Shown piece by piece: positions 8,987 through 29,850 of a stretch of 32,000 bases of DNA (position 1 is its first letter; each line of letters begins with the position of its first letter). Below the pieces are notes generated by a model, which did no database searches, was not told the DNA's origin, and saw only the letters and a list, made by a program, of their open reading frames with translations. The stretch comes from an uncultured Erysipelotrichaceae bacterium (GTDB taxonomy: Bacteria > Bacillota_I > Bacilli_A > Erysipelotrichales > Erysipelotrichaceae): contig OW818653.1 of the NCBI GenBank assembly GCA_942492995.1, forward strand, positions 1,260,001 through 1,292,000, given 5' to 3'. Both the position numbers and the translations under genes were made by a program.

Positions 8987-9001
8987 AGTTTCTCCTCTAT
9001 T

Positions 9002-9017
9002 GTTAGCTATAGCTAAC
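9002..9017. promoter_or_regulatory. Perfect 16-bp palindrome GTTAGCTATAGCTAAC in the feoA-feoB spacer (DtxR-family operator candidate or RNA hairpin)
   Basis: Read directly from the sequence. It matches 12/16 positions of GTTACCCTTAACTAAC at 9712-9727 (shared GTTAnCnnTAnCTAAC). Confidence 0.4.
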
Positions 9018-9032
9018 TTAACCTACAAAAAA

Positions 9033-9317: not shown

Positions 9318-9318
9318 A

Positions 9319-9696
9319 TTAACTCAATTCTTCTTTATTTAAATATTCTTTTATTGATTCCAATAAAGTGTCCGTAATAACATGTTCCATACGACACGCA
9401 TTCTCTTCCGCATCCTCTGGACTTAAGTTTAGCGATTGTTGCAAATACTCAGTAATAATCAAATGTCTCTCATAGATTTCTTGAGATAATTCTCTACCCT
9501 TGTCCGTTAATGTGACTGGACCATAATCATCTTTATTAATCAATAATCGATTTTTAAGTTGATCCATCGCTTTCGTAACACTTGGTTTAGAAATGCTTAA
9601 TGCCTTAGAAATCTCAGCCACATGTGCATGACCTTGACTTTTTTCTAATAGATAAATCGTTTCCAAATACATTTCTGCTGAATCGTGATATTTCAT
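9319..9696 (-). CDS. DtxR/MntR family metal-dependent transcriptional repressor (no SH3 domain)
   Basis: 125 aa. SAEMYLETIYLL...VAEISKALSISKPSVTKAMDQL is a winged HTH, and ERHLIITEYL...EENACRMEHV is the metal/dimerisation region. Confidence 0.85.
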   Translation of the reverse strand: MKYHDSAEMYLETIYLLEKSQGHAHVAEISKALSISKPSVTKAMDQLKNRLLINKDDYGPVTLTDKGRELSQEIYERHLIITEYLQQSLNLSPEDAEENACRMEHVITDTLLESIKEYLNKEELS

Positions 9697-13152: not shown

Positions 13153-13971
13153 CTATTTCTTAGATACAATCTTACGCCATATTCCAAACATACTTATCGT
13201 ATAAACATATTGTAAAATAAATTGTATCCATTCAGGTCTAGAGTACCAACCCACTGTAACATAGAGTGGTAATCCAATAATACCTTCTTTATGATCTAGT
13301 ACTGTGGATGAGAAATCATATGCTTTAATAAATAGAATATGGTTTTCTGCTATATAACCCAATGACTTTAATGCGGACAAACCTTCATGTACTGCATAGC
13401 CTAATAAGAATCCAGCTTGCAAGATTAAATACGCTAAAGTTATCGTAAACAACAGTTTGAGATTAACATTTATTAATGCATGATAAACTAAATACGCTAA
13501 TACTAGTGAAATAAGAATCCCTGTTAGTATTGATATTAAAGTATACTTTCCGGCAAAGGTAAATATCGCTATTTCTGCACCTTCTCGTACAACCATAATA
13601 AATGCGACACTAAACAAACCGCTTGTAGAAAGATTTTGTTTAACTTTGTCCTCTACATCACCAATCATATTTTGTCCATGTTTCATCATCCAAAAAATAA
13701 ATGTCGTTATAAGCAATAACGCAATTATACTTGCGCCACTTTCCCATATTTTCGCAATCTCATCTGTTTTTTGAATAAGTGTTGAGATGAAAAATAATCC
13801 AGCACCGATTAAAAGTGAAGCGATTATTCCAGCAAATGCGCCATAATATACATTCTTTTTTAAATTAGTCTGTTTAGTATGATTTAAATACTGCAGAATA
13901 ATCACCACAATTAAAAAGGCTTCTAACCCTTCGCGAAAACCCATAATAAGACCAGGTATAAATACATCCAT
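13153..13971 (-). CDS. FTR1/EfeU-family iron permease
   Basis: 272 aa and polytopic. Two REXXE motifs: GFREGLEAFLI and VVREGAEIAIF. Confidence 0.85.
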   Translation of the reverse strand: MDVFIPGLIMGFREGLEAFLIVVIILQYLNHTKQTNLKKNVYYGAFAGIIASLLIGAGLFFISTLIQKTDEIAKIWESGASIIALLLITTFIFWMMKHGQNMIGDVEDKVKQNLSTSGLFSVAFIMVVREGAEIAIFTFAGKYTLISILTGILISLVLAYLVYHALINVNLKLLFTITLAYLILQAGFLLGYAVHEGLSALKSLGYIAENHILFIKAYDFSSTVLDHKEGIIGLPLYVTVGWYSRPEWIQFILQYVYTISMFGIWRKIVSKK

Positions 13972-14674: not shown

Positions 14675-15109
14675 TCAATCGACAAATACAATCTCATCTC
14701 CTGGTTTTATATTCCCTCCAACTAATACCCGAGCGAAGATTCCTTCTCTTGGCATAATACAATCACCGACTAAATTCCTAATTTCACACCCAACGTGACA
14801 TTCTTTTCCTATTTGTGTCACTTCAAGTAATACATCACTTACTTTGAACTTTGTCCCAATTGGTAGATGGTGTAAATCAACGCCAATGGTTGTTAGGTTT
14901 TCTGCAAACTTCCCTGGAACTAAACCACTAACCCCTTTGTTTGTCATTTTATCGATACTCTCTTGAGCTAATAAACTAACCATTCGATGCCATGGACCTG
15001 AATGTGCATCACCAACCATCCCTAATTCTGTTTCAAACTTTCCTTCAGGAATTGGATTTTTGATTACACCTTTCGTTTCACTTATATTCACTGATACAAC
15101 TTTTGCCAT
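14675..15109 (-). CDS. Small MOSC domain protein
   Basis: MAKVVSVNISETKG...VTQIGKECHVGCEIRNLVGDCIMPREGIFARV matches the stand-alone MOSC pattern with a conserved Cys. Start moved to ATG 15109, preceded by AAGGAGAAG. Confidence 0.7.
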   Translation of the reverse strand: MAKVVSVNISETKGVIKNPIPEGKFETELGMVGDAHSGPWHRMVSLLAQESIDKMTNKGVSGLVPGKFAENLTTIGVDLHHLPIGTKFKVSDVLLEVTQIGKECHVGCEIRNLVGDCIMPREGIFARVLVGGNIKPGDEIVFVD

Positions 15110-15126
15110 AGTCTTCTCCTTTTCAT

Positions 15127-15705
15127 TTACCATGTCTTTTCAATCTCAATCGTTTGATTCGATACACAATATTGAACACCTGTTTTAAATGGTTTTTCTC
15201 CATTTCCATGTGTTATAAGCAATACCGTTTTATTTTTATCTAATAATTCTTTTTGAATAAGTTCATAAGCAATATTCTTTGCGTATTCATCCATATATGA
15301 AGTAGGTTCATCTAGTAAGTAGATATCTGTATCACTACAAAGCGTTCGTATCAGCGCAATCTTTTGGCGTTCACCTCCAGATAATTTCGATATTGGTACA
15401 TCGCTGTCATAGTCTAAATTAAACATATCTAACCATTCCATTACTTGATTTGTTTGGCTTAAATTATTCCTTATTTTTGGACTGAATAGATGAAAATGTT
15501 GAGGTTGATACGTCCATGTACCATTGATTGTAATATCACCTTGATATGAATTTAACCAACCGATCATACTTCTAAATAAGCTTGTTTTACCACACCCATT
15601 TTCGCCTTTTATTAAATGTAATTTACCTGATTCAAAAGTTAAATCATTAATGTAAAGTAAGGTTCTATCATTGAATAATAGTTTGAAATTAGTACATTGG
15701 ATCAT
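15127..15705 (-). CDS. tupC: ABC transporter ATP-binding protein, tungstate-uptake type
   Basis: Walker A GENGCGKTS, signature LSGGERQKIAL, Walker B IYLLDEPTS. Short (192 aa). Overlaps the permease gene by 17 nt. Assignment rests on operon context with TupA. Confidence 0.7.
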   Translation of the reverse strand: MIQCTNFKLLFNDRTLLYINDLTFESGKLHLIKGENGCGKTSLFRSMIGWLNSYQGDITINGTWTYQPQHFHLFSPKIRNNLSQTNQVMEWLDMFNLDYDSDVPISKLSGGERQKIALIRTLCSDTDIYLLDEPTSYMDEYAKNIAYELIQKELLDKNKTVLLITHGNGEKPFKTGVQYCVSNQTIEIEKTW

Positions 15706-16342
15706 GACTTACCTCTTTAAACACACTGTGTACTAAGTAATTTATCCCAAAGCTAATTATCAACAAACATATCCCAAGAATAAGTGCCGTTTGATAGTTC
15801 CCTTGATTTGTTTCTAATACAATAGCGGTTGTCATAACTCTCGTCTTAAAACGTATATTTCCACCTACCATCATTACAGCCCCAACCTCTGCCATTGCTC
15901 TACCAAAACCAATTAAGATTGATGCTAATATTCCATATTTCAACTCTTTAATGAGATAAACCATTTGTTTATAGTTGGATATATGTAAGCCATAACAGGT
16001 TTCTAGAAAACTTGATTTAATCGGAAGTACTAATGGATATACACTTGCGATGATAAGCGGGAGTACAATTAATATTTGCGCAATTATGATTGCGGTATGC
16101 GTATAGAGTAATTTTAATGAACCAAGTGGACCTGAATTGGATAATAGTAAAAATATCGTAATACCTGCTAATACAGGTGGAAGTCCTGCTAAACTCGATA
16201 TAAATGGACGTATTCTTAATACGCTCTTTTTAGTACTTTTACCAAGTAACAATCCTAACGGTACCCCAAAGAATGCCGCAATTGTGGTAGAGGTTAAGCA
16301 TATTAAAATTGAATTTACGATTATCTGAATAATTTCACTCAT
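15689..16342 (-). CDS. tupB: ABC transporter permease, tungstate-uptake type
   Basis: 217 aa and about 5-6 TM segments. Sits between the binding-protein and ATPase genes. Confidence 0.7.
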   Translation of the reverse strand: MSEIIQIIVNSILICLTSTTIAAFFGVPLGLLLGKSTKKSVLRIRPFISSLAGLPPVLAGITIFLLLSNSGPLGSLKLLYTHTAIIIAQILIVLPLIIASVYPLVLPIKSSFLETCYGLHISNYKQMVYLIKELKYGILASILIGFGRAMAEVGAVMMVGGNIRFKTRVMTTAIVLETNQGNYQTALILGICLLIISFGINYLVHSVFKEVSHDPMY

Positions 16343-16344
16343 GT

Positions 16345-17169
16345 TTATTCTGTAAAAAACAATGCTTGTTTATATGCTTCCTTTCCGAATTCACTAATCA
16401 AACCTAATGCTTTTTCACTTAACATCCATTCTTCAAACTTAAGTGCAGTTTCACTATCCACATTTTCAACTTTTTCAGGGTTAATTACGATGATTGAATA
16501 ATCATTCCGTAAATCTGGACTTTCACTCACAATTACATCTAAATCTAATTTATCTTGCATAGAAAGGAATGTGGCTAAATCAGTTAATGTGTAAGCTTGT
16601 TTCTCATTCGCCATGATTAATGTATTTCCCATTCCACTTCCACTTGATACATAGAAACTCGTATCGAGAGATAGTTCATCATAAATTAAATTAGTTGATT
16701 TCCAAATATTCTTTTCTTTACTATGTGTACCAGAATTATCACCTCGCGATACAAATAATGATTTAGTTTCATAAATCTTGAGAAATGCGTCTTTAGCGCT
16801 TAAATTTATGATTGTTGCTGGATCCGTGTTTGGACCTACGATCGCAAAGAAATTGTACATAAAGGTACTACGTTTTAATCCATATCCATCTTGTACAAAC
16901 GTATCTTCTGCGGCAGGTGAATGTACGAGCAATACATCCGCATCCCCTCTTTGTCCTGCTTCGATTGCGGCACCAGATCCAAGTGATACTACTTCAAGAT
17001 TGATATTCAAATCTTCTAGAATGTAAGGTCTTAAATATTCTATTAGTCCACTATCATTTACTGACGTAGTCGTTGTTAATCTCAGATTTGTCGGTTCTTC
17101 TTTTACAATTGTTTGAGTTGAGCATGCGGATAATAGTAATACGAGTAATAAACAAAAGATACGTTTCAT
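16345..17169 (-). CDS. tupA: Tungstate-binding lipoprotein TupA
   Basis: MKRIFCLLLVLLLSAC lipobox. LRLTTTTSVNDSGL (TupA TTTS signature) and SRGDNSGTH oxyanion-binding motifs. Start moved to ATG 17169. Confidence 0.75.
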   Translation of the reverse strand: MKRIFCLLLVLLLSACSTQTIVKEEPTNLRLTTTTSVNDSGLIEYLRPYILEDLNINLEVVSLGSGAAIEAGQRGDADVLLVHSPAAEDTFVQDGYGLKRSTFMYNFFAIVGPNTDPATIINLSAKDAFLKIYETKSLFVSRGDNSGTHSKEKNIWKSTNLIYDELSLDTSFYVSSGSGMGNTLIMANEKQAYTLTDLATFLSMQDKLDLDVIVSESPDLRNDYSIIVINPEKVENVDSETALKFEEWMLSEKALGLISEFGKEAYKQALFFTE

Positions 17170-17173
17170 TTTT

Positions 17174-17668
17174 TTAGTCCTTTCTGGCACATTCTTGTGC
17201 AGACCCAATTAATATATCTAACCCATGTTTTAATGGTTCGATAATATATAACAATGATTCTTCAACTGCTTTCGGACTTCCTGGTAATGTAATAATCAAT
17301 GTTTCATTACGAATACCAGATATTGCACGCGATAACATCGCCTTCTTAGTAATGGTCATACTATAGGCACGAATCGCCTCTGAAATCCCAGGTGTATTTT
17401 TATCTAATAAGGGTTGAAGAGCTTCAGGTGTAACATCCCTTACTGCGAATCCAGTACCACCAGAAATTAGCAATAAATCTACCTTTAATTCATCTGAACA
17501 ATGCTTAATCTCTCTTTGGAGATGTTCAACTTCATCTGGAACGATGACAGTATACTCAAGTTTAAACGGTTGATTAAACATACACTTTTCTATCGTTGGT
17601 ATTCCTCCGTCAACTCTTAAGTTTTGCGAACCTTTATCCGAAGAAATTATTATGGCATATCGATACAT
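17174..17668 (-). CDS. moaB: MoaB/MogA-family molybdopterin adenylyltransferase-like protein
   Basis: LLISGGTGFAVRDVTPEA and TLPGSPKAV motifs. Start moved to ATG 17668 (MYRYAIII), preceded by GGGAGG. Confidence 0.8.
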   Translation of the reverse strand: MYRYAIIISSDKGSQNLRVDGGIPTIEKCMFNQPFKLEYTVIVPDEVEHLQREIKHCSDELKVDLLLISGGTGFAVRDVTPEALQPLLDKNTPGISEAIRAYSMTITKKAMLSRAISGIRNETLIITLPGSPKAVEESLLYIIEPLKHGLDILIGSAQECARKD

Positions 17669-18093
17669 TTTATGACCTCCCATTGATCATTTGATTTAAC
17701 TATTCCTGAACTCAAACATTTTAGATAGATTGTATTTATTCTTAATGGACAATTTTCATGATTCCGCAAGTAGTTACACCCATCACTGATGTGACATCGT
17801 TTACCTATTTTAATTATTTTAAGTAATACGTCATTCTTTCGTATTGTATCCCCTACAGATAATCGAATATTCTGAGAATTATCATAGATAATATTCGCAT
17901 AGAAACTCTTCATGCATAATGCGTTATCTTGATTCATCTGATTATATGTATCCATATCAAGCATTAATATTTGATCATCATTATGATAATCTTCCAATAT
18001 ACCTGATTCTGTAAGTGTTAAACTCTCTCGATTAGATACATTATCTTTATTAATCCCAACATATAGAGCATGAATTCTAAATATTTCTGACAT
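17650..18093 (-). CDS. Divergent MOSC-like small protein (paralog of 14675-15109)
   Basis: IIKIGKRCHISDGCNYLRNHENCPLRINTIYLKC aligns with QIGKECHVGCEIRNLVGDCIMPREGIFARV of the other MOSC protein. The start is 18093 or 18114; both overlap the moaC 3' end. Confidence 0.5.
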   Translation of the reverse strand: MSEIFRIHALYVGINKDNVSNRESLTLTESGILEDYHNDDQILMLDMDTYNQMNQDNALCMKSFYANIIYDNSQNIRLSVGDTIRKNDVLLKIIKIGKRCHISDGCNYLRNHENCPLRINTIYLKCLSSGIVKSNDQWEVIKCIDMP

Positions 18094-18553
18094 AATGTCC
18101 AGATTTCCCACCAATCTTTTCGATTAAATAGATATCCGTTATATGCATCGAAGGATCCATTGATTTTGCCATATCATAGATTGTGAGCGCACAAATGCTT
18201 GCGCCTGTTAGAGCTTCCATTTCTACCCCTGTCTTCCCTTCACACGTTACTTTACAAACTACTCTTATCGAGAAATTTGTATCATCAGAATGAAAAAGAA
18301 TATTAATGCCTGTTAATAAAAGTGGATGGGCCATTGGGATTAATTCAGCTGTCTTCTTAACTGCTTGTATCCCACCAACTTGCGCAACAGATAGAACATC
18401 ACCTTTTTTCATTTGTTTGTTCATAATCGCATTATAGGTAATTTCGTTCATATGAATTACAGCTTGTGCACTCGCGGTTCTTGAAGTAACAGTCTTTTGT
18501 GTCACATCTACCATCTGACCATGCCCCTGTTCATTTATGTGTGTAAGTTTCAT
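18077..18553 (-). CDS. moaC: Cyclic pyranopterin monophosphate synthase MoaC
   Basis: 158 aa. GKTGVEMEALTGASICALTIYDMAKS is the MoaC signature. Confidence 0.9.
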   Translation of the reverse strand: MKLTHINEQGHGQMVDVTQKTVTSRTASAQAVIHMNEITYNAIMNKQMKKGDVLSVAQVGGIQAVKKTAELIPMAHPLLLTGINILFHSDDTNFSIRVVCKVTCEGKTGVEMEALTGASICALTIYDMAKSMDPSMHITDIYLIEKIGGKSGHYVRNI

Positions 18554-19513
18554 TTATCCTCCTATTTGACTCATTTGACGAACAATCATTTGATGTTCAT
18601 CGAGTAAATGTTTTTCTGGTTTAACTTGGTAAGCTTCAAGAATTAAAGGTAATATGTCTAAATTAGCTCGTAATGGAGTTTTTAAATCAATTTCAAGATC
18701 ACTGTGTAAACATGGTTTTAATTTACCATCTGGAGTTAATCTCAATCGATTACAATATGCACAGAAATTACATGACAATGGAGAGATTAGACCTACCTTG
18801 CCTCTTGCGCCATCTAATCGATAGTATCGAGCAGGAGATGAAGGATCATCTGATTTTACTGACTTTAGTTCAGGATGATGACTTATGATTAGTTCATTTG
18901 AATAAAAGTGCTTTTTAGCATATGCGACATTACTACCAATCGGCATTAGTTCAATGAAACGCACATCAACGCCCCAATCCTTTGTGAGTTGAATAAAATC
19001 AGTTATTTCATCATCATTGATTCCTCGATTAACGACACAATTTAACTTAACTTTAAGTCCTACATTTAATGCACTGTGTATTCCTTCCAACACATTACGT
19101 AATTGTCCACCACGGCTCATTAATTTATATCGGTCATGATTTAATGTGTCCAAACTGATATTTACACGATGTAACCCAGCTTCTTTTAATGGTTTTGCGA
19201 GCAATTTAAGAAGCACTCCATTGGTAGTCATTGCGATATCATCAAGTTGTTTTAGTTGAGCAACTTTTCGAACAAACTCAACCACATCTTTACGCACTAA
19301 AGGTTCTCCACCTGTAATACGTAATTTCTTTACACCTAAACCAACAAATTTTTCAATTACTGTATATAACTCTTCAAAACTTAGTATTTCTTCGTGTGGC
19401 ATCGATTCTACACCTTCTTCAGGCATACAATAGGTACAACGCAGATTACATCGATCTGTAATTGATACTCTCAGGTACGTTAAATCACGATTAAAACGAT
19501 CAAGCATATTCAA
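18554..19513 (-). CDS. moaA: GTP 3',8-cyclase MoaA (radical SAM)
   Basis: LRVSITDRCNLRCTYCMPEE (CxxxCxxC) and the C-terminal cluster CNFCAYCNRLRLTPDGKLKPCL. Confidence 0.95.
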   Translation of the reverse strand: MNMLDRFNRDLTYLRVSITDRCNLRCTYCMPEEGVESMPHEEILSFEELYTVIEKFVGLGVKKLRITGGEPLVRKDVVEFVRKVAQLKQLDDIAMTTNGVLLKLLAKPLKEAGLHRVNISLDTLNHDRYKLMSRGGQLRNVLEGIHSALNVGLKVKLNCVVNRGINDDEITDFIQLTKDWGVDVRFIELMPIGSNVAYAKKHFYSNELIISHHPELKSVKSDDPSSPARYYRLDGARGKVGLISPLSCNFCAYCNRLRLTPDGKLKPCLHSDLEIDLKTPLRANLDILPLILEAYQVKPEKHLLDEHQMIVRQMSQIGG

Positions 19514-21410
19514 TTACCTCCCCGCAGTTATGTGTATCATAACCACCTAATTCAAAACACTTATCTCTGAACTCATTTGATTTTAAACACTCTAAAAATA
19601 ACTTCATCATGTCAGTTTCAAGAAGTCCTTTACGACATACAAAATCATAGTCCTCTTCACCTAATGGAATAAAATCGCATCCCATTACGTTTGCGGCAGA
19701 ATAAACACCTAATCCACAATCTACTACACCATTTTGTACAGCCGCAGCGACTGCTAAATGTGTATTTAATTCTTTATCATATCCATTAATACTATTTGGA
19801 TTTATATTCTTTTTAGTTAGCCAATAATCAAGTAGAACGCGTGTTCCGGCACCGCGTTGTCGATTCACAAATCGATGATACACTAAATCTTCTATCGTAC
19901 ATATATTTAGTGGATTATCTTTTTTAACAATCAAACCCTGAATTCGTTTAACCCCTTTTATTAACACCATTTCTTCATCTTTGAATAGTTGTTTAATAGT
20001 ATCAATATTATAGGTTCCACTTTGATCAAGTAAGTGTGTCATTGCGATATGTGATTCTTTTCGTTTAAGTGCTAATAATCCAGCATAAGAACCTACATGT
20101 ACACTTGATATATGATAGTGCACATTATTTCTTTCTATCTGTTCTAATTGATTATTTAATACATCCATTACAAGATCATGTGATCCTATTGCCATCAGTG
20201 TATTTTGAATGGTTTGTATCGGTTTATTTAACCAAACCTCAATTCTTTCATTCGATTCTATGCCTTCACTATTCTTATCAATCATTGCGTATCCATCGCT
20301 CTTTACAACAGACATCATCATACCTGCACCACGAGCAAGCGGAGTTGCGATATATTTTCCATCTATATACCCAAGTTTTACACGGATGTATTCTTTACTC
20401 TTTAAACTTGATACGATTCTACGTGTACTTATCGCTTGAATAATCGATGTTTGTTTAACTGGATAATGATTTAATTTCAATAATAATGGTGTAACAAACT
20501 CTTCAAATACGATATGAGCACTAACAGGATAACCAGGAATTCCAATAACCGGTACATTTCCAATTCTGCCTAATATCGCAGGTTTACCTGGTTTTATGGA
20601 TAATCCATGGATGAATACTTCACCTAATTCTTTGATTACAGATGCGGTATAATCTTCTCTTCCCGCTGATGAACCTGCATTAATTAGTACTACGTCATAG
20701 TGTTCAGCCGCAGATTTTACCGCATTTAATAACTCATCATATACATCAGGAATAATCTTTAACGTTGTTGGGATTGAGAATGCTTCTTGTGCCAATCCCA
20801 TAAATAAATACGAATTAGATTCCACAATATCCCCAATATTTACTGAATCATACGCAGACCGTATTTCCGTTCCAGTTGGAATAATCGCTACACTAACTTG
20901 TTTATACACTTCAATATGGAGTTGATTAGCAGCCATAAGAACACTAATATCCATTGGACGTAACACATGTTCCATCGGAAATAAAAGTTCACCTTCTACA
21001 ATATCTTCACCAATTGGTCGCACATTTTCCCACGGGACAACTGATTTAATAATCTGTATCCCATTATCTGTTTCTATGCAATCTTCAACCATAATAACCG
21101 CATCATACGGATCAAGAATAGGATCACCCGTATCTACTTCGATATAGTCATTTACATTAATTAACAGTGGTCTATGTTCATTCGCATCAAATGTTACTCT
21201 CGAATTAATTGCGATTCCATCCATCGCTGAACTTGGATAAAATGGCACACTTCGTTTAGCATAAATTGGTTGCGAAAGTACACGATTTAGAGCGTTTCTA
21301 CTTTCCACAATTTCAATTTTGCGATCCAAATAAATATCTTCTAAGACTTGATTATAGTTTGCCTTAGCTATTTCTAAATCTGTAGACTTAAGATAAAAAG
21401 ATCGTTTCAT
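19500..21410 (-). CDS. moeA: MoeA (metal insertase) fused to a C-terminal periplasmic-binding-protein-like domain
   Basis: 636 aa. The N-terminal ~400 aa is MoeA-like (SAMDGIAI, IPTGTE, INAGSSAGREDY, GIPGYPVSAHIVF). The C-terminal ~230 aa (IGSHDL...NRQRGAGTRVLLD...CGLGV) resembles a type-2 PBP oxyanion-binding fold. Confidence 0.75.
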   Translation of the reverse strand: MKRSFYLKSTDLEIAKANYNQVLEDIYLDRKIEIVESRNALNRVLSQPIYAKRSVPFYPSSAMDGIAINSRVTFDANEHRPLLINVNDYIEVDTGDPILDPYDAVIMVEDCIETDNGIQIIKSVVPWENVRPIGEDIVEGELLFPMEHVLRPMDISVLMAANQLHIEVYKQVSVAIIPTGTEIRSAYDSVNIGDIVESNSYLFMGLAQEAFSIPTTLKIIPDVYDELLNAVKSAAEHYDVVLINAGSSAGREDYTASVIKELGEVFIHGLSIKPGKPAILGRIGNVPVIGIPGYPVSAHIVFEEFVTPLLLKLNHYPVKQTSIIQAISTRRIVSSLKSKEYIRVKLGYIDGKYIATPLARGAGMMMSVVKSDGYAMIDKNSEGIESNERIEVWLNKPIQTIQNTLMAIGSHDLVMDVLNNQLEQIERNNVHYHISSVHVGSYAGLLALKRKESHIAMTHLLDQSGTYNIDTIKQLFKDEEMVLIKGVKRIQGLIVKKDNPLNICTIEDLVYHRFVNRQRGAGTRVLLDYWLTKKNINPNSINGYDKELNTHLAVAAAVQNGVVDCGLGVYSAANVMGCDFIPLGEEDYDFVCRKGLLETDMMKLFLECLKSNEFRDKCFELGGYDTHNCGEVIEYA

Positions 21411-21425
21411 ACAATTCCCCCTTAA

Positions 21426-22649
21426 CTAAATTAATATGACATTTACTAATTCATCCTTTTTATATCCTTCTAAATTACCCGGTACGAAAAGATATGCGTT
21501 AGCCGACAATAATGTAGAAATTAAACCACTCTTTGTGTATACAATACGTGCTCTAGTACAATTATTTTCTTGGTAAACGGTTAAGAAGATAATCGTTTCT
21601 TTACCTTGAGATGAAATTACATTTGTGTCTATTTTTGCGAATATTGAGTTCGTGTTCTGTTCAAATACTTGTTGGAATGATGTTTTGAAAACTCTCTGGA
21701 ATATCGCAAATGCACTCACTGGATGACCAGGTAAACCGATAAGAAGACACTTACCAATAGAGCCTAAAATAGTTGGTTTCCCAGGCTTAACAGCTAAACC
21801 ATGCGACCACACAACATTTTTCCCTAACGATTCAAATATCTTAACCGTGTAATCTTTTTCACCTTGTGAACTCCCGCCACTTACAAATATCACATCAACT
21901 TCTTTACTTAAACGATTAATTGCTTTATTTAGTTGATCAAAATCATCTTGGATTAATAACGTAGAATGTACATTAATGTTTAATTCATTTAATTGAACAG
22001 TTAAAAGAGTTCCATTAATATCATGAACTTGACCTTTTTTTATGGATTGATTTATTGGAAACACTTCATCACCGGTAGAAATGATTGCGGCGTTTAATTT
22101 CGCATAAACTTCTACAGTATCAATTCCAACACCAGCACAAACACCAATAGCTTGAGTAGTTAGACGCTTACCCTTCTCAACAATTACCTGTTTGTAATTT
22201 ATATCTTCACCTGTTCGAATAACATTTTCATTACTCGCAATCGATTTATAAATAAGCACATCATTCGTATTGAATAATTCTGTATACTCAATCATTACAA
22301 CTGCGTCTGCACCTTCTGGCAACATTCCACCAGTTGGCACATATGCACATTCACCAGCATTAATTGTAATAAGTGCTTCTTGTCCCATCGCAATCTTATC
22401 AACACACTTCAGAATTGTTGGCAGTGATTCAGATGCGCCTTGTGTCTCTTTTGAGTGTACTGCATACCCATCTACAGTAGATCGTGTAAAGTTAGGAAGC
22501 ACTTCTGGACTGTATATCGGGGTTGAGACAATACGATTAAGTGCTTGTTCAATACAAATAATCTCGGTTTTACCAAGATGATATTTCTTTAAATGATTTT
22601 TACAATTCACTATAGCATTTTCGACAGTATCAACTTTTAATAGAGCCAT
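21426..22649 (-). CDS. moeA: Molybdopterin molybdenum/tungsten-transferase MoeA (stand-alone)
   Basis: 407 aa. STVDGYAV, VPTGGMLPEGADAVV, VSGGSSQGEKDY and GLPGHPVSAFAIF. Confidence 0.9.
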   Translation of the reverse strand: MALLKVDTVENAIVNCKNHLKKYHLGKTEIICIEQALNRIVSTPIYSPEVLPNFTRSTVDGYAVHSKETQGASESLPTILKCVDKIAMGQEALITINAGECAYVPTGGMLPEGADAVVMIEYTELFNTNDVLIYKSIASNENVIRTGEDINYKQVIVEKGKRLTTQAIGVCAGVGIDTVEVYAKLNAAIISTGDEVFPINQSIKKGQVHDINGTLLTVQLNELNINVHSTLLIQDDFDQLNKAINRLSKEVDVIFVSGGSSQGEKDYTVKIFESLGKNVVWSHGLAVKPGKPTILGSIGKCLLIGLPGHPVSAFAIFQRVFKTSFQQVFEQNTNSIFAKIDTNVISSQGKETIIFLTVYQENNCTRARIVYTKSGLISTLLSANAYLFVPGNLEGYKKDELVNVILI

Positions 22650-22711
22650 TTCAAATCAATTTTATGGTCATAAAAAAACACCAACACCTTTAAATCTAGT
22701 ATAGCACATTG

Positions 22712-22728
22712 AAATGTAAGCGCTTTAT
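22712..22728. promoter_or_regulatory. cre-like operator copy 1 (AAATGTAAGCGCTTTAT) in the divergent moeA / radical-SAM promoter region
   Basis: 17-mer identical to 23862-23878. The core ATGTAAGCGCTTTAT matches 9 of the 10 specified positions of the cre consensus WTGNAANCGNWNNCW. An extended -10 (TGcTATACT, minus strand, ~22697-22705) for the moeA operon lies just beside it. Confidence 0.5.
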
Positions 22729-22780
22729 TAAAAATGTGAAATATCTTGAGTCGATTAATGTTTTGCCCTATAGTAAGATT

Positions 22781-23848
22781 ATGATGAATTTACATATCAA
22801 TGATGATGTCCCAATAAATAAGATTTATCTAGAACTTACACAACGCTGTAATCTTCAATGTAAGAACTGTTTTAGACAGAATTGGACATTACCAGAAACA
22901 CAAATGTCGCAAGAGATTTTTGACAATATACGAAATAGTTTAAACGATATCCCAAGTTTAAAAGAGATTGTGTTAGGTGGAATTGGTGAACCTACGATAC
23001 ATCCTAAATTTGTGGAATGGGTTAAATTACTACCTAATGTTGAACTTAGTGTTACGACTAACGCCTATTATTGGAAAGACGAAACGATTCAATTACTAGC
23101 AGAACGATTTAACCGCATTGTAATTTCTGTCGATGGTTTAGAATCAACATTCTACAAAATACGTAGCTTTGAACTTTCTTTACTTGAACAAAATGTAAAA
23201 CGATTAATCCATATTCGTACATCACTTGGAAAGTATGAACCATTCTTAATTACACAAATTGTATTAAGTACAGACAATGTCGATGAGATTGAAGAACTAA
23301 TCCCAATACTCGCAAAGATGGGATTTATGAAGATTATTATATCTAACTTGTTACCTCAAAACGAGTTAGATAAAGATAAAATACTATACACTTTACATGA
23401 AAATCCAAGAATGACAAAACTTCGTACAACTTGGTTAAATAAAGCTTTATCCAATCAGATTCAAATAAAATTTCCAGCAATACAACTTAAAACAGAAAGA
23501 CGTTGTAACTTCGTACATGATGGAACGCTAACCATAAACAGTGATGGTAATATTGCGCCGTGTTATCGATTTGCACATCCATCCATCGAATATGCATTTG
23601 GTAGACGTAAACAAGTTTATCCTTTCCATTATGGTAATGTCCTTAATCAATCAATTAACGAGATTTGGTTTACACGTTTATATACCGATCTACGCCTGCA
23701 AAACATTCGCAATCGTTTCCCATCATGCCCAGATTGTGATCGGGTGGATTGTTGCGACTACATCAATGACTCACTTTGTGATTGTAGAGGACAGAATCCC
23801 TCATGTGCTGATTGTTTATGGACAAGAGATTTCATTCAATGCATATAA
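22781..23848 (+). CDS. Radical SAM/SPASM-domain maturase associated with tungsten-cofactor oxidoreductases
   Basis: LELTQRCNLQCKNC (CxxxCxxC) and GGIGEPT. The Cys-rich C-terminal SPASM-like region reads CYRF...CPDCDRVDCCDY...CDCRGQNPSCADC. It lies immediately upstream of aor. Start placed at ATG 22781 (MMNLHIN). The SD is weak, so the start is uncertain. Confidence 0.7.
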   Translation: MMNLHINDDVPINKIYLELTQRCNLQCKNCFRQNWTLPETQMSQEIFDNIRNSLNDIPSLKEIVLGGIGEPTIHPKFVEWVKLLPNVELSVTTNAYYWKDETIQLLAERFNRIVISVDGLESTFYKIRSFELSLLEQNVKRLIHIRTSLGKYEPFLITQIVLSTDNVDEIEELIPILAKMGFMKIIISNLLPQNELDKDKILYTLHENPRMTKLRTTWLNKALSNQIQIKFPAIQLKTERRCNFVHDGTLTINSDGNIAPCYRFAHPSIEYAFGRRKQVYPFHYGNVLNQSINEIWFTRLYTDLRLQNIRNRFPSCPDCDRVDCCDYINDSLCDCRGQNPSCADCLWTRDFIQCI

Positions 23849-23852
23849 GACC

Positions 23853-23881
23853 TTTACTTTAAAATGTAAGCGCTTTATAAT
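23853..23881 (+). promoter_or_regulatory. Sigma-A promoter of aor overlapped by cre-like operator copy 2 (23862-23878)
   Basis: TTTACT (23853-23858) - 17 nt - TATAAT (23876-23881). The 17-mer AAATGTAAGCGCTTTAT fills the spacer and runs into the -10. Confidence 0.6.
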
Positions 23882-23887
23882 TAAGTT

Positions 23888-24012
23888 AAGTTCCGAGTTA
23901 TTCACCTCAAAAGGCAAAATAACCGATGGGTTTTATTGGAAACGATAAAGCCTCCCACTCCTTGGAAAGGGACTGCATTTTTAAAATGCGGCCCTGTACA
24001 CCAACACATAAT
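23888..24012 (+). promoter_or_regulatory. Candidate Moco/Tuco (molybdenum/tungsten cofactor) riboswitch aptamer in the aor leader
   Basis: The ~170-nt leader contains blocks I recognise from the Moco RNA motif: CCGAG (23893-23897), AAAGCCTCC (23947-23955) and GGAAAGGG (23964-23971). Local hairpins: GTTATT/AATAAC (23897-23923), CCGAT/ATTGG (23923-23939), TCCC/GGGA (23953-23972). I could not run a covariance model. Confidence 0.55.
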
Positions 24013-24037
24013 ACAAGGGTCGCCCCTTGTTTTTTTA
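24013..24037 (+). terminator. Intrinsic terminator acting as the leader's expression platform, 20 nt before the aor SD
   Basis: CAAGGG (24014-24019) - TCGC - CCCTTG (24024-24029) followed by TTTTTTT. SD AAAGGAGGA at 24047-24055 and ATG at 24058. Confidence 0.75.
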
Positions 24038-24057
24038 TGTTTGACAAAGGAGGAAAT

Positions 24058-25857
24058 ATGTCAACAACTTATAATCTTAAATTGCTTAGAGTCAATCTTA
24101 CTGAAGGAACAATCAAAACTGAAACTTTAGATGAAAAATTGGCTAAAAAATTCTTAGGGGGACGTGGTTTAGGCACTAAAATACTATTCGATGATGGTAT
24201 TGCTAAAGTAGATCCACTATCACCGGAAAACAAGCTTATCTTTATTAATGGACCATTAACTGGTGCTAATGTTCCAACTGGCGGACGTTATATGGTCGTC
24301 ACAAAATCACCTTTGAATAATATGATCGCAAGTTCAAACTCAGGTGGTGTTTGGGGTGCCCGTTTAAAATATGCTGGTTATGATGCACTAATTGTAGAAG
24401 GTAAAGCAAGTAAACCTGTTTATATTTCAATCGATGATGAAAAAGTAGAAATCAAAGATGCGAAAGAATTATGGGGCAAAACTTCTGAACATGTCGAAGA
24501 AACATTGAAAAAAGTTTATGGAGAAGAAGCTTCAGTCTTAAATATCGGTCCTGCAGGAGAAAATCTATCTCTAATGGCTGCGATTATTAATGAAGCGGAT
24601 CGTGCAGCTGGTAGAAGTGGTGTTGGAGCTGTTATGGGATCAAAATTACTAAAAGCTATCGTATGTAAATCAACTCGTACAGTTGTAGAACCTTTCGATA
24701 AAGAAGCATTACGTGAAACAGTTACTCATTCATTAAAACTTATTCGTGATAATGGTGTAACTGGAACTGGATTACCAACGTATGGTACTGCAGTATTAGT
24801 CAATATCATCAATAATATTGGTTCATTCCCAACTAAAAACTGGCAAGAATCAGAATTCGCAAATGCGGAACAAATCAGTGGCGAAACACTAAAAGAAAAA
24901 CATATCGTTAAACAAGGTTTCTGTCACCGCTGTCCTATCGGCTGTGGTCGTGTTATTAATCTAAATGGTAAAGTAGTTGGTGGTCCTGAATATGAACCAC
25001 TATGGGCTTATGGCGCAAACTGTGGTGTTGATAATTTAGAAGCCATCAATGAAGCAAACTATTGGGCTAATGAAATGGGTTTAGATGCGATTAGTTGCCC
25101 TACAACGATTGCGACTGCGATGGAATTGTATCAAAAAGGTTATATTAAAGAAGAAGACTGTGATGGCATACCTCTAGAATTTGGTAGTGCCAAGGCAATC
25201 GTAGAATGGACAAAACGCATTGGATTGGGACATAATAAATTAGCTAAATTAATGGCTCAAGGGTCATATCGTTTATGTGAAGCGTATGGTGTTCCTGAAC
25301 TTTCAATGTCTGTTAAGAAATTAGAAATGCCTGCATATGATGCACGTGGTATCCAAGGGATTGGTTTAAACTATGCGACATCAAATCGTGGTGGATGTCA
25401 TGTACGTGGCTATATGATTTCTCCTGAAATTTTAGGTCTACCTCAACTACTTGATCGTTTTGAAACTAAAGATAAAGCTATTTGGACTAAAACATTCCAA
25501 GATTTAACCGCTGTTATTGACTCAGCTGGTGTTTGTTTATTCACATCATTCGCATTGGGTGCACCAGAATATGCATCAATGATTAATGCGGCAACTGGCA
25601 CAACGTATACACCTGCTCAATTGCTTGAAGTTGGAGAACGTATCTATAATATTGAACGTTTATTTAACAAAGAAGCTGGTATGAAAGCAGAAGATGATCG
25701 TTTGCCAACACGTCTTATGAAAGAACCTATTCCTGCAGGTCCATCAAAAGGTGAAGTAAGTAAGTTGAACATTACATTGCCTGAGTATTACACTGTAAGA
25801 GGTTGGGTTAACGCATTCCCTACTGAGGAAACATTAAAACGTTTAGACTTACTCTAA
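24058..25857 (+). CDS. aor: Tungsten-containing aldehyde:ferredoxin oxidoreductase (AOR family)
   Basis: 599 aa from ATG 24058 (MSTTYNLKLLRVNLTEG...FLGGRGLG). 4Fe-4S ligands CHRCPIGCG, plus SNRGGCH and DSAGVCLF. The track ORF start at 23926 is an upstream artefact covering the leader. Confidence 0.9.
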   Translation: MSTTYNLKLLRVNLTEGTIKTETLDEKLAKKFLGGRGLGTKILFDDGIAKVDPLSPENKLIFINGPLTGANVPTGGRYMVVTKSPLNNMIASSNSGGVWGARLKYAGYDALIVEGKASKPVYISIDDEKVEIKDAKELWGKTSEHVEETLKKVYGEEASVLNIGPAGENLSLMAAIINEADRAAGRSGVGAVMGSKLLKAIVCKSTRTVVEPFDKEALRETVTHSLKLIRDNGVTGTGLPTYGTAVLVNIINNIGSFPTKNWQESEFANAEQISGETLKEKHIVKQGFCHRCPIGCGRVINLNGKVVGGPEYEPLWAYGANCGVDNLEAINEANYWANEMGLDAISCPTTIATAMELYQKGYIKEEDCDGIPLEFGSAKAIVEWTKRIGLGHNKLAKLMAQGSYRLCEAYGVPELSMSVKKLEMPAYDARGIQGIGLNYATSNRGGCHVRGYMISPEILGLPQLLDRFETKDKAIWTKTFQDLTAVIDSAGVCLFTSFALGAPEYASMINAATGTTYTPAQLLEVGERIYNIERLFNKEAGMKAEDDRLPTRLMKEPIPAGPSKGEVSKLNITLPEYYTVRGWVNAFPTEETLKRLDLL

Positions 25858-25872
25858 CCAATAAGGAGATTT

Positions 25873-26094
25873 ATGATTGAAGTTCGACTCTTTGCGTATT
25901 TTCGTGATAATAGAGGTAAAATTCTTCATTTAGATGCGCAAGAATTCCAAACTCCTCAAAGTATACTTAATCATCTTGGAATCGATATCAAAGATGTGGC
26001 TATATTATTAGTTAATGGTAGACATTCTAATGGTGAACATATTTTAAAGGATAGTGACATTGTCGCATTCTTCCCTCCTGTAGCAGGCGGATAA
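25873..26094 (+). CDS. moaD: MoaD/ThiS-family sulfur-carrier protein
   Basis: 73 aa ending in ...FFPPVAGG (C-terminal Gly-Gly). SD AAGGAG at 25862-25867. Confidence 0.8.
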   Translation: MIEVRLFAYFRDNRGKILHLDAQEFQTPQSILNHLGIDIKDVAILLVNGRHSNGEHILKDSDIVAFFPPVAGG

Positions 26095-26095
26095 T

Positions 26096-26133
26096 AAAAA
26101 GGTCTATAATCATTTAATTGGTTATAGACCTTT
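26096..26133. terminator. Bidirectional terminator between moaD and moeB
   Basis: AGGTCTATAA (26100-26109) pairs with TTATAGACCT (26122-26131). It is flanked by an A-run and a T-rich tract. The right arm overlaps the last moeB codons. Confidence 0.7.
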
Positions 26134-27094: not shown

Positions 27095-27664
27095 TTAGAA
27101 TTTTATTGGTTCAAGTTTTAATGGTGTAGTAATACATGTATCACTTTCACTAAAGGTAGAGATAGGATATTCAACAGTCAAACCATCATAATCGACTTTT
27201 AATGTAGCTTTAATTCCTTTTGGCAACCATATTCCAATAAACCCATTATCCTGAGTAGTACGCTCTTCATCAATAATAATCTGATTGTTTTCATCGACAA
27301 TTCTAACTCTCATGGTTTGATTGAATATTTCACCACGACATGAAACTAAATTATGAATGGTACATGGGTGTACTTCATTAATATATGGTGCGATAGACAC
27401 AAAGAAAGAATCCGTAGGCAAGTCTAGACTATATTCCTTTTCATTATCATATAGAAATAGTTTATCTCCTGTAATTCGTGCCCCAACATGTGTAGGTTCA
27501 TCAATTCTTTGATCAAGATTATTCACTACTTCTTTAATTTCTGTATTTTCTAAATCAAGTTGTTTTAATACTTTGTTTACACCACTTGGTAACGAAAGAA
27601 ACCAAACTGATACGCTTATAAATACAATTCCTAAAATAATGATTAACCCAAGTTTATTTTTCAT
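27095..27664 (-). CDS. cueP: CueP-family metal (copper)-binding protein with an N-terminal membrane anchor
   Basis: 189 aa. FFVSIAPYINEVHPCTIHNLVSCRGE ... DNGFIGIWLPKG ... SDTCITTPL follows the pattern I recall for CueP (APY..xH.C..H.L..CRGE, NGFIG.WLP, D.TCIT). Confidence 0.7.
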   Translation of the reverse strand: MKNKLGLIIILGIVFISVSVWFLSLPSGVNKVLKQLDLENTEIKEVVNNLDQRIDEPTHVGARITGDKLFLYDNEKEYSLDLPTDSFFVSIAPYINEVHPCTIHNLVSCRGEIFNQTMRVRIVDENNQIIIDEERTTQDNGFIGIWLPKGIKATLKVDYDGLTVEYPISTFSESDTCITTPLKLEPIKF

Positions 27665-27696
27665 TGTTCAACCCTCATTTATAGTTTAAAGGTTGG

Positions 27697-27716
27697 ATAT
27701 GTAGAACTTATGAAGA
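27697..27716 (-). promoter_or_regulatory. Direct-repeat response-regulator box (a) upstream of cueP
   Basis: Minus strand reads TCTTCATAAGT TCTACATAT, two half-sites 11 bp apart. TTCTAC lies 17 nt upstream of TATAAA (27683-27678). It overlaps the HK stop codon. Confidence 0.55.
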
Positions 27717-29108
27717 TTGTTTAATTGGAAGTATTATCGTGAAAGTAGACCCAACATTTAACTCACTTTCAACTTTAATGGTTCCTTTATGTGCTTCAAC
27801 GAGTTGTTTAACAATGGTTAAACCAATACCACTACCTCCGCTCTCACGTGTCCTGGAAGAATCTACTCGATAGAAACGTTCAAATATATAAGGTAATGAT
27901 TCTTCTGGTATGCCTATACCTGTATCTGATATTTGAATTAAGATGTTATTGTCCATTTTATTAACATTGATTTTCAGTTTCGCATTTTCATTTGAGTAAT
28001 TATATGCATTCAAAATCAAGTTATATAGCACCTGATAAATTCGACTTCGATCAGCTTGGATATTAAGTGGTATTGAGTTTAGTTCGATTGAAATAGATTG
28101 ACTTGTTTGTTTGAACTCAAGTGATTTTAAACATTCCTTAATAAGTTCATTGATATCAAATTCAGTTAGTTCTAGCTTATTGGTTAATTGTTCAATCTGA
28201 GTTAATTGTTCTAAATCTTTCACAATTCTTGTCAATTGTAATATTTCATCATGAATGCTCTTTAATCGATTATCATCCATCTTAATAATTCCATCCATAA
28301 TAGCTTCAACACTTATTTGAAGTGTTGATAAAGGTGTTCTTAGTTCATGTGCTACATCTGAAGTAATTTGTTTCTTTATACGATCTTGTTCATAAAGATT
28401 TATCGATAAGTGATTTATCGAATCAATCAACTCACTAACTTCATTAATATTTGTTTTATATTCAATCTCACTTCCGTAATGTCCATTCGCAATATTCTTC
28501 GTCGCATCAATCGTCTTTAAGATTGGTCTACTAAGTGTCTTCGCAAAGAGCACACCAACAACTACACTTGATAATATGCTTGTTAATGCAATGATCAATA
28601 AAACTGATTGAAGTTGGTTAATAAATATTACATCATCCTCTTGATAGAAATAAGGTCCGAAATAACTAATTGTGACTTTGCCTACATCCGTATTTTTGTA
28701 CTCAAGCAAATAATCATATGACACAAATTCACCTTTTTGAGTTGGAAATTGCGTTAACATACGATGTGAAATATCATTTATCAACTGTACACAAGCACTC
28801 ATATCCCAAACTTCCGCATCCCAAATAGAACTATTCTCGTTATCATAGACTTTTATAATATAACCACTATATAACGCTAGCATGCCTACTTCATGTACTT
28901 TTTCATTATCCCAAGACGAACGATTAACATCATACTGTAGTGATACTTGGGCAATAATTTGATTAATTGTTTGCGTTTGTTTATCAATAATATAATCTTT
29001 GAATCGATCATGGATAAAATAGCTCGATATTGAACTTACTAATCCAACCGCAACTAAAACAGTTAATACAATAACAGATGTAAGTTTACGACTTAAAGAT
29101 TGTTTCAT
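27708..29108 (-). CDS. Sensor histidine kinase (two TM segments, ~140-aa extracytoplasmic loop, HAMP, HisKA, HATPase)
   Basis: H-box SDVAHELRTPLS, N-box LILNAYNYS, G-boxes DTGIGI and GGSGIGL. Confidence 0.9.
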   Translation of the reverse strand: MKQSLSRKLTSVIVLTVLVAVGLVSSISSYFIHDRFKDYIIDKQTQTINQIIAQVSLQYDVNRSSWDNEKVHEVGMLALYSGYIIKVYDNENSSIWDAEVWDMSACVQLINDISHRMLTQFPTQKGEFVSYDYLLEYKNTDVGKVTISYFGPYFYQEDDVIFINQLQSVLLIIALTSILSSVVVGVLFAKTLSRPILKTIDATKNIANGHYGSEIEYKTNINEVSELIDSINHLSINLYEQDRIKKQITSDVAHELRTPLSTLQISVEAIMDGIIKMDDNRLKSIHDEILQLTRIVKDLEQLTQIEQLTNKLELTEFDINELIKECLKSLEFKQTSQSISIELNSIPLNIQADRSRIYQVLYNLILNAYNYSNENAKLKINVNKMDNNILIQISDTGIGIPEESLPYIFERFYRVDSSRTRESGGSGIGLTIVKQLVEAHKGTIKVESELNVGSTFTIILPIKQSS

Positions 29109-29800
29109 GTTAAAGACCCGAATCGATAACCTAAACCAAATACTGTTTGTATGTACATTGGTTTCTTTGGATTATCTTCAATTTTATTTCTTAAATTTTT
29201 AATATGCGTATCGATTGTACGATCATAACCATCAAAATCTGATCCAAACGCATAATCTACCAATTCTACTCGATTAAATACTCTATTTGGATGATGGATT
29301 AATACAGTTAATAGACGAAATTCATTAGGGGTTAAATGTATTTCAACATTATTTTTAAGTACACTTTTCTTATTCAAATCAATCTCTAATCCTCCATCAA
29401 ATTTCATGATTTGATATAGTGGTAAAATGGATGATTCTGATCGTCTTAGTACTGTCTCAACACGCGCATTCAATTCTTTCAAACTAAATGGCTTTGTGAT
29501 ATAGTCATCTGCCCCAAGTTTCAATCCATCAATAATGTTTTCTTCTGTCGAACGTGCAGTTAACATAATAATCGGCACTCTCGAAAATTGTCGTATTGTT
29601 TGACATACTTGTTCACCACTTAATTTTGGAATCATTAAATCAAGTAACACTAATGAAAAAGTTAAGTCTTTTGCGAGTGCAACTGCGCTAACTCCATCAT
29701 GTGTAGTGACAATATTAAAACCTTGATGCTCGAAATTCGCTTTAAGTATTTCGACAAGTTTTATTTCATCTTCAACAATCAGGATTGTTTTATTTTCCAT
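29105..29800 (-). CDS. OmpR/PhoB-family response regulator
   Basis: Receiver domain ILIVEDE...LLDLMIP...TA and winged-helix C-terminus LTPNEFRLL...VFGLGYRF. Start moved to ATG 29800 (MENKTILIVEDE), preceded by GAGG. The 4-nt overlap with the HK gene suggests translational coupling. Confidence 0.9.
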   Translation of the reverse strand: MENKTILIVEDEIKLVEILKANFEHQGFNIVTTHDGVSAVALAKDLTFSLVLLDLMIPKLSGEQVCQTIRQFSRVPIIMLTARSTEENIIDGLKLGADDYITKPFSLKELNARVETVLRRSESSILPLYQIMKFDGGLEIDLNKKSVLKNNVEIHLTPNEFRLLTVLIHHPNRVFNRVELVDYAFGSDFDGYDRTIDTHIKNLRNKIEDNPKKPMYIQTVFGLGYRFGSLT

Positions 29801-29821
29801 TCGTATAACCTCATTTAATGC

Positions 29822-29850
29822 ATTAATGCCCAACTAGGTTGAGCATTAAT
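29822..29850 (-). other. 13-bp-arm hairpin/palindrome between the lipoprotein stop and the response-regulator SD
   Basis: ATTAATGCCCAAC (29822-29834) - TAG - GTTGAGCATTAAT (29838-29850), with one mismatch and no T-tract after it on the minus strand. Confidence 0.5.

Follow-up and report, generated by a model that had tools for sequence, protein, structure and literature searches.

In which direction does a cofactor-sensing riboswitch work when the gene behind it encodes an enzyme that uses the cofactor rather than one that makes it? The question is raised by a 32-kb stretch of DNA (hereafter the window; GCA_942492995.1, contig OW818653.1, positions 1,260,001-1,292,000, forward strand) from an uncultured Erysipelotrichaceae bacterium, in which a leader of ~170 nt precedes the gene for a tungsten-type aldehyde:ferredoxin oxidoreductase (AOR). 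Positions below are those of the window unless another locus is named. The leader carries an aptamer of Rfam family RF01055, the Moco RNA motif or Moco/Tuco aptamer, named for two cofactors, that of molybdenum (Moco) and that of tungsten (Tuco). It lacks stem P3 of the family and is followed by an intrinsic terminator. We consider it probable that this P3-less, Tuco-type element controls transcription of an operon of AOR and a moaD-like gene through that terminator, and that its ligand activates the operon. As an aptamer in such a context, the leader adds an ordinary member to a known family; the part that reaches past existing knowledge is a conserved relay of alternative helices that predicts an ON switch. 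To the broader proposition, that the leaders before AOR in Erysipelotrichaceae and related Firmicutes represent the first ON-type Moco/Tuco riboswitches to be recognised, with the cofactor activating synthesis of the apo-enzyme, we give an even chance.

Membership of the leader in RF01055 is secure. The plus-strand match (23879-23988) scored 55.6 bits (E = 6.7e-11) against a gathering score of 36 bits, spanned the full model (positions 1-135) without truncation and was the sole Rfam match at gathering threshold in the window. An earlier note on this DNA had recognised a Moco-motif aptamer and placed the blocks CCGAG (23893), AAAGCCTCC (23947), GGAAAGGG (23964), CCTTG (23960) and CAAGG (24014), a run of seven T (24030-24036), AAGGAGG (24047) and an ATG (24058); each block was found where the note had put it, and the Rfam search bears out the family call. 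The P3 positions of the model are deleted; P1, P2, P4, P5 and the conserved junctions are present. The aptamer core (23889-23974, plus strand), supported by the RF01055 match and by covariation, consists of P1 (23889-23894/23969-23974), P2 (23897-23923), P4 (23928-23953, with a GAAA loop) and P5 (23954-23955/23964-23965). The junction blocks CCGAG, GCCUCCC and GGAAAGG and the GAAA loop on P4 are invariant or nearly so in the leader alignment. The leader folds more stably than shuffled versions of itself (z = -3.98). Across 20 leaders, 87.8% of the aptamer's cells are paired and 13 pairs have changed on both sides, giving a covariation score of 0.343 vs. 0.158 for shuffled data, a value reached by none of 500 shuffles. 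This covariation is borne by P2 (five of six pairs changed on both sides) and P4 (five of 11); P1 and P5 are nearly invariant and thus give little information.

The absence of P3, together with the tungsten-cofactor genes of the genome (TupA/TupB-like, TIGR04317-like maturase and AOR), identifies the leader as the Tuco subtype, as far as sequence and gene content can tell. The earlier note had stated that one stem, by its presence or absence, separates Moco from presumed Tuco variants, and had pointed to the tungsten setting; TupA/TupB-like genes, moa and moe genes, the maturase and AOR are all nearby. It had also presented the element as a special test case. The tungsten context and the P3-less aptamer stand, but the claim was overstated, as P3-less aptamers ahead of Tuco-using enzymes were noted in 2008 and an example before WOR1 was described in 2024.

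More than 20 loci besides this one have the same leader ahead of an AOR orthologue. An RF01055 match lay immediately upstream of an AOR relative in 14 of 31 genome loci, and one further locus (L007) has the same leader with an aptamer just below the Rfam threshold. The full design of aptamer, downstream hairpin and terminator is found in the window's close relatives (L001-L006 and L008) and also in L007; the nearest genome is an Erysipelotrichaceae metagenome-assembled genome (MAG) with 98% AOR identity. All 12 loci fetched in addition via AOR homologues (76-88% identity) carry the leader with this design, usually in the gene order radical-SAM maturase, leader, AOR, ThiS-like gene. The design is present in metagenome loci too, and metagenome contigs contributed two new leader variants, L035 and L075; a pattern scan of metagenomes with GCCTCCCACN{3,7}GGAAAGGGA gave 100 matches, mostly chance occurrences in unrelated GC-rich DNA, with ~12 real leaders among them. 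Whole leaders (20 sequences) were aligned with MAFFT, and this alignment was used for the aptamer and the hairpin behind it only, because unequal loop lengths make MAFFT misplace the 3′ arm of the terminator. For the downstream helices, equal-length pseudo-sequences were anchored on the CCC and GGG cores, a procedure that fixes one register and undercounts pairs past the bulge. Folding was done on 13 distinct leaders, including the window's own (W), with nearest-neighbour energies at 37 °C.

The leader is easily overlooked. The listed open reading frame (ORF) of 643 aa (23926-25857) is an over-extension of AOR into the leader: most close homologues are 597-599 aa long and are aligned from residue 1 of the start at 24058. 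The AOR gene itself (24058-25857, plus strand, 599 aa) shows both family domains (AFOR_N PF02730, 1.1e-79; AFOR_C PF01314, 7.1e-141) and is preceded by the Shine-Dalgarno sequence AAGGAGG at 24047-24053, with its ATG at 24058-24060. The earlier note's view that the long ORF hides a leader of ~170 nt is thus upheld by the homologues. Public AOR homologues are also recorded at 605-643 aa vs. the usual 597-599 (P0001, P0012, P0050, P0072 and others); gene callers often run AOR into the riboswitch leader, which is consequently hidden in annotations.

Downstream of the aptamer, these leaders share a hairpin that we call H1, a freely variable spacer, the terminator and the Shine-Dalgarno site. H1 (23968-23995, plus strand; -14.5 kcal/mol), the proposed anti-antiterminator, is closed by the pairs A68-U95, G69-C94, G70-C93, G71-C92, C73-G91 and U74-G90 (leading 239 omitted). 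Because the base of H1 takes up the entire 3′ strand of P1, H1 and P1 are mutually exclusive. Covariation supports the hairpin, with 91.6% of cells paired in the 20 leaders, five pairs changed on both sides and a score reached by none of 500 shuffles. Its 3′ half is segment s3 (GCGGCCCUGUA, 23988-23998, plus strand), which is also the 5′ strand of a proposed antiterminator; the 3′ strand of the latter, segment s4 (UACAAGGGUCGC, 24012-24023, plus strand), comprises the 5′ arm and loop of the terminator. The s3:s4 pairs are G88-C23, C89-G22, G90-C21, G91-U20, C92-G19, C93-G18, C94-G17, U95-A16, a bulged A15, G96-C14, U97-A13 and A98-U12, where 88-98 stands for 23988-23998 and 12-23 for 24012-24023. 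For the window this duplex is worth -16.3 kcal/mol; over all 20 leaders its energy ranges from -14.2 to -19.2 kcal/mol. The terminator (24013-24036, plus strand) is the hairpin ACAAGGG-UCGC-CCCUUGU (24013-24030) with a run of seven U (24030-24036); its hairpin has -8.8 kcal/mol in the window and -7 to -14 kcal/mol across leaders. As found by the terminator scan it is not significant alone (six sites in 4 kb vs. 2.3 ± 1.8 expected). In the anchored orthologous leaders, 88.3% of its cells are paired, four pairs show changes on both sides, and none of 500 shuffles attains its score. The hairpin and T run that the earlier note had seen ahead of AOR are thus backed by compensatory changes, and the covarying stems it had looked for in homologous leaders exist in the aptamer, in H1 and in the terminator.

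These helices can be read as a relay. Without ligand, the weak P1 of 5-6 bp would be displaced by H1, where GGGACU, the 3′ strand of P1, is paired with GGCCC of the downstream s3. With s3 held in H1, the terminator hairpin and its seven U would form and transcription would stop ahead of AOR. Binding of the cofactor would lock P1 shut and release s3, which could then pair with s4 while s4 emerges from the polymerase; the resulting antiterminator would block the terminator and let RNA polymerase read into the AOR gene. In short, P1 excludes H1, H1 excludes s3:s4 and s3:s4 excludes the terminator, so that stabilisation of P1 should prevent termination. The outcome would be that apo-enzyme is made only when the tungsten cofactor is available.

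Across leaders, the terminator loop and the part of s3 that extends into it change together. Relative to the window, in which the four nucleotides 5′ of CCC in s3 are GCGG and the loop is UCGC, a C-G pair has become U-A in L007 (GUGA, loop UCAC) and a G-C pair A-U in L035 (AUGG, loop CCGU). Pairing is retained in L008 (GCGG, CUGC), L134 (GCGA, UCGC) and L140 (GCGG, UCGU), with one mismatch in L141 (GCGG, CCGA) and two in L075 (GCGG, CCCA). When the terminator loop was randomised, s3:s4 became weaker by 4-10 kcal/mol, and a random loop equalled the native one in 0-7.8% of trials per lineage; for the window the mean was -10.3 kcal/mol and 1.4% of random loops equalled the native loop, figures to be read with the relatedness of the lineages in mind. 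On the anchored alignment the 7-bp core of the antiterminator is paired in 99 of 105 cells, and six pairs of the helix changed on both sides vs. 3.6 expected (12 of 500 shuffles reach this). Taken as a whole, the covariation gives only moderate support to the s3:s4 helix as an antiterminator.

The predicted coupling was also observed in silico. In 12 of 13 leaders the unconstrained minimum free energy (MFE) structure of the full length contains H1 and the terminator. With five pairs of P1 forced, the MFE structure contains the antiterminator and no terminator in ten of 13, the window included, and in all 13 when the transcript also ends ahead of the terminator's 3′ arm. When the Boltzmann ensemble is considered, the probability of the window's terminator falls from 0.98 unconstrained to 0.19 with P1 closed; across the 13 lineages it is 0.40-0.99 unconstrained, and ten have values of ≤0.29 with P1 closed. 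Mutating CCC of s3 to AAA returned the terminator probability with P1 closed to its unconstrained level in every lineage (0.98 in the window); since the mutation abolishes the effect, the coupling passes through s3. Closing P1 costs 2.3-8.6 kcal/mol across lineages and 6.3 kcal/mol in the window, which lies within the range that a tight-binding ligand could pay. The Shine-Dalgarno sequence is unpaired with a probability of 0.44 unconstrained and 0.46 with P1 forced. A translational layer, in which CUCCUUG (23958-23964) pairs with the Shine-Dalgarno region as it does in the full-leader MFE structure of the window, was considered and rejected for the window, accessibility being alike in both states.

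Several points weigh against an ON switch. The terminator persists at equilibrium with P1 closed in L008 (0.98), L075 (0.91) and L136 (0.76), and the unconstrained MFE structure of L007 already contains the antiterminator. Before the terminator's 3′ arm exists, P1 plus antiterminator and H1 are near-equal without ligand (-38.1 vs. -38.3 kcal/mol in the window), so the outcome hinges on kinetics. Over its entire length the antiterminator is paired in 71.3% of cells, which 308 of 500 shuffles match, with changes on both sides in seven cells only; its GGCCC/GGG core is invariant and therefore uninformative either way. The terminator-type Tuco riboswitches of Eubacterium limosum for which expression data exist behave as OFF switches (PMC11725836), and in vitro binding of Tuco has never been demonstrated for any RF01055 RNA (PMC2408646; PMC10845959). 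We infer both the ligand and the actual direction of regulation; the latter comes from secondary-structure models and the folding energies given above, and should be taken as a prediction.

The best surviving alternative, which we judge unlikely, keeps the same architecture and is compatible with the ON mechanism, but has another ligand: the molybdenum cofactor, metal-free molybdopterin or an intermediate of the pathway. Biochemical work has never established what RF01055 binds (PMC2408646; PMC10845959), absence of P3 is linked to Tuco by a correlation among genomes that has exceptions, and deletion of P3 from the Escherichia coli RNA left its specificity unchanged (PMC2408646). Against this, the aptamer lacks P3 and the context is tungsten throughout, with TupA/TupB-like genes (below equivalog cut-offs), the radical-SAM maturase of a tungsten-cofactor enzyme and an enzyme of the AOR family.

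A conventional OFF switch appears less probable still. Here CCUUG in the P5 loop (23960-23964) would pair with CAAGG (24014-24018) in the absence of ligand and prevent termination, and the ligand, by folding the loop, would allow the terminator to form and AOR to be repressed. The five complementary bases exist, as the earlier note had pointed out in proposing them as a possible antiterminator. If the window's transcript is cut before the terminator's 3′ arm, the unconstrained MFE structure (-38.3 kcal/mol) does have CCUUG/CAAGG wrapped around H1, and the RF01055 switches with functional data are OFF, namely moaA of E. coli (PMC2408646) and fetABC1 and focA of E. limosum (PMC11725836). However, pairing of these bases is weak (-4.0 to -7.6 kcal/mol for the duplex, loop closure not counted), and the complement is absent or re-registered in L008, L035, L140, L141 and L142, all of which have the terminator. 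We therefore reject CCUUG/CAAGG as the main switch helix; it is both weak and not conserved, and the alternative helices that are conserved predict ON. An OFF switch of this kind would also give no explanation of why H1, s3 and the loop of the terminator are conserved, and closure of P1 would still free s3 and form the stronger s3:s4 helix.

The promoter region bears on the last alternative. A sigma-70-like promoter (23853-23881, plus strand) with -35 TTTACT at 23853-23858, a 17-nt spacer and -10 TATAAT at 23876-23881 matches the consensus at 10 of 12 positions, and both hexamers are kept in orthologous leaders. The predicted transcript start at ~23888-23889 falls at the 5′ end of P1 and gives the leader of ~170 nt. 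A palindrome resembling a catabolite-responsive element (cre), TGTAAGCGCTTTAT (core AAGCGCTT; 23865-23878, no strand assigned), was read from the sequence and overlaps the -10 box. Nearly all in-group AOR leaders keep it, in the form TGTAAGCGCTTTATAAT or TGAAAGCGCTTATAAT, and L134 has TGTAAACGTTTTATAAT, in which two bases differ. Judged by eye against what we take to be the cre consensus, WTGNAANCGNWNNCW, the sequence ATGTAAGCGCTTTAT fits at all but one position. This suggests a candidate site for a regulator of the CcpA/LacI type and hence a possible second layer of control. In E. limosum, a CcpA-like motif is present at all Tuco-regulated operons and promoters (PMC11725836). It is improbable that the aptamer and terminator are real but uncoupled, the latter a constitutive attenuator or a leftover, with AOR controlled at its promoter (the cre-like site being one candidate) or with the aptamer acting via RNA stability or translation. 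The conserved palindrome, its CcpA-like counterparts in E. limosum and the three lineages that retain the terminator with P1 closed could all be read in this way. Against it, conservation and complementarity persist in H1, s3 and the terminator loop even as the H1 loop, the spacer and stems P2 and P4 vary freely, the in silico coupling specifically needs s3, and the equal accessibility of the Shine-Dalgarno sequence gives no indication of a translational mechanism.

More distant AOR leaders lend independent support to a ligand-activated design. In L011 (~2330-2440 of its locus) and L024 (~2300-2420), which come from Proteocatella and a Clostridia MAG, a U-run directly follows the hairpin that holds the 3′ strand of P1. 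P1 and the terminator would thus exclude each other directly, a one-step ON design by construction. L024 also has a second strong terminator-like hairpin, GCAGAGUC-GCG-GACUCUGC, followed by eight U ahead of the gene. If the ON reading holds, at least two platform designs would give this behaviour: the relay of H1, antiterminator and terminator, and the direct terminator that includes the P1 3′ strand. The pbuE adenine and gcvT glycine riboswitches are transcriptional ON switches, and in the pbuE type the terminator itself takes in the P1 3′ strand. Classical attenuators employ a relay of three mutually exclusive helices: anti-antiterminator, antiterminator and terminator. The window's leader is like pbuE and gcvT in that a ligand-stabilised P1 competes with a downstream helix and the ligand would prevent termination. 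It differs in aptamer class and ligand, and in having one more helix in between; L011 and L024 are the pbuE-like ones.

Other AOR leaders differ in platform. Six of them (L012, L014, L018, L019, L020 and L021, just upstream of position 2501 of their loci) have no terminator, and their unconstrained MFE structures pair the aptamer block CCUCCC with the Shine-Dalgarno GGAGG, a pairing that most of them give up when P1 is forced. This hints that they may be translational ON switches in which the aptamer core serves as anti-Shine-Dalgarno. L009 and L010 (Defluviitaleaceae, upstream of 2501) have in common the aptamer and a GGUUCC...GGGAACC hairpin, whose loop contains ~110 extra bases in L010. Near the AOR locus of L021, an Oscillospiraceae MAG, a lysine riboswitch (RF00168, 79.4 bits; 6480-6648, minus strand) was found; it is unrelated to the AOR leader.

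The genes around the leader fit a consumer of the tungsten cofactor. A ThiS/MoaD-like small protein (25873-26094, plus strand), the WorX of PMC13328260, is encoded directly after AOR and would be co-transcribed with it, as judged from a gene order kept in orthologous loci; a terminator-like hairpin (26098-26133) lies 3′ of this gene. Upstream of the leader is the gene for a radical-SAM/SPASM maturase of tungsten-cofactor oxidoreductases (22709-23848, plus strand; TIGR04317, 344.7 bits, just below the cut-off of 380). The terminator scan found no terminator between the maturase gene and the leader; read-through transcripts would therefore cross the riboswitch too. A divergent minus-strand operon for cofactor synthesis and tungstate transport (14675-22649), assigned by domain and family matches, shares an intergenic region of 59 bp (22650-22708) with the maturase gene. 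It contains, in order, moeA, moeA fused to a periplasmic-binding-protein-like domain, moaA, moaC, a MOSC-like gene, moaB, genes for TupA-like and TupB-like proteins (the best NCBIfam matches, yet below equivalog cut-offs), an ABC ATPase gene and a MOSC gene; moeB is also in the neighbourhood. The Rfam scan at gathering threshold found no second RF01055 copy at this moeA-moaA-tupABC operon or elsewhere in the window. Since the synthesis and transport operon has no RF01055 element, the riboswitch here would control the cofactor's consumer and not its supply.

Genes for other metals were also observed in the window. Just past moeB, the gene for a CueP-family periplasmic copper-binding protein adjoins a pair encoding a histidine kinase and an OmpR-type response regulator (27095-29833, minus strand). 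An iron uptake cluster consists of a DtxR-like repressor, FeoA and FeoB (6992-9696, minus strand), and an FTR1-family permease is encoded separately (13153-13971). Iron uptake genes near tungsten genes recall the tungsten-iron co-regulation described in E. limosum; the same Rfam scan found no RF01055 element at the window's iron uptake cluster.

Comparison with described members of the family shows what is familiar and what is not. The Moco motif, the split into P3-containing and P3-less forms, the correlation of the latter with tungsten-cofactor genes (including cofactor-using enzymes) and terminators after the aptamer were all reported in 2008 (Regulski et al., 2008; PMC2408646). The window's leader resembles that P3-less subtype in P1, P2, P4 and P5, in CCGAG, GCCUCCC, GGAAAGG and the P4 GAAA loop, in its missing P3, in the Tuco-using enzyme gene behind it and in the aptamer-then-terminator arrangement. 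That study demonstrated and discussed repression alone, achieved by placing the ribosome-binding site in P1 or by a terminator that follows the aptamer, whereas the window's platform has the extra hairpin H1, which inverts the predicted logic to ON. In E. limosum, five P3-less elements were reported in 2024, at WOR1, tupABC, fetABC1, fetABC2 and focA (PMC11725836). One of these RF01055 aptamers thus lies directly upstream of an AOR-family (WOR1) operon, and the CcpA-like motif at Tuco-regulated promoters matches the window's cre-like palindrome. The terminator-type fetABC1 and focA elements are up-regulated under tungsten limitation and are therefore OFF switches, and the WOR1 element is described as translational, a sequestor of the ribosome-binding site, with no direction given (PMC11725836). 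Unlike these, the window's element is of the terminator type and is predicted to be ON. Outside the family, bis-molybdopterin guanine dinucleotide-dependent activation of E. coli torCAD has been proposed, possibly via its 5′ untranslated region (PMC10845959). The likeness lies in a cofactor-consuming enzyme gene that is expressed only when a pterin cofactor is available; torCAD has no RF01055 motif, and its RNA element is hypothetical and unrelated in sequence. All functional results that we could find for the Moco/Tuco class are of repression, and the literature searched, which covers the field incompletely and so gives absence of evidence only, contained no description of an ON-type Moco/Tuco platform.

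Few of the major riboswitch classes have been characterised as little as Moco/Tuco; in vitro work has never confirmed its ligand, and according to a review from 2024 the structure of the RNA is unknown. If the ON prediction were wrong, the element described here would just add another ordinary case to a family, and a setting, already known. If it is right, a small group of point mutations (in the 5′ strand of P1, in s3 and in the loop of the terminator) would have clear predicted phenotypes. Such leaders would also provide a gain-of-signal read-out for the intracellular tungsten cofactor, which is too unstable for direct assay, for example in the genetically tractable E. limosum. Finally, the class would then serve feed-forward control of the enzymes that consume the cofactor besides feedback control of its synthesis and transport, and the family would switch either way, according to whether the gene behind the riboswitch makes or uses the cofactor.

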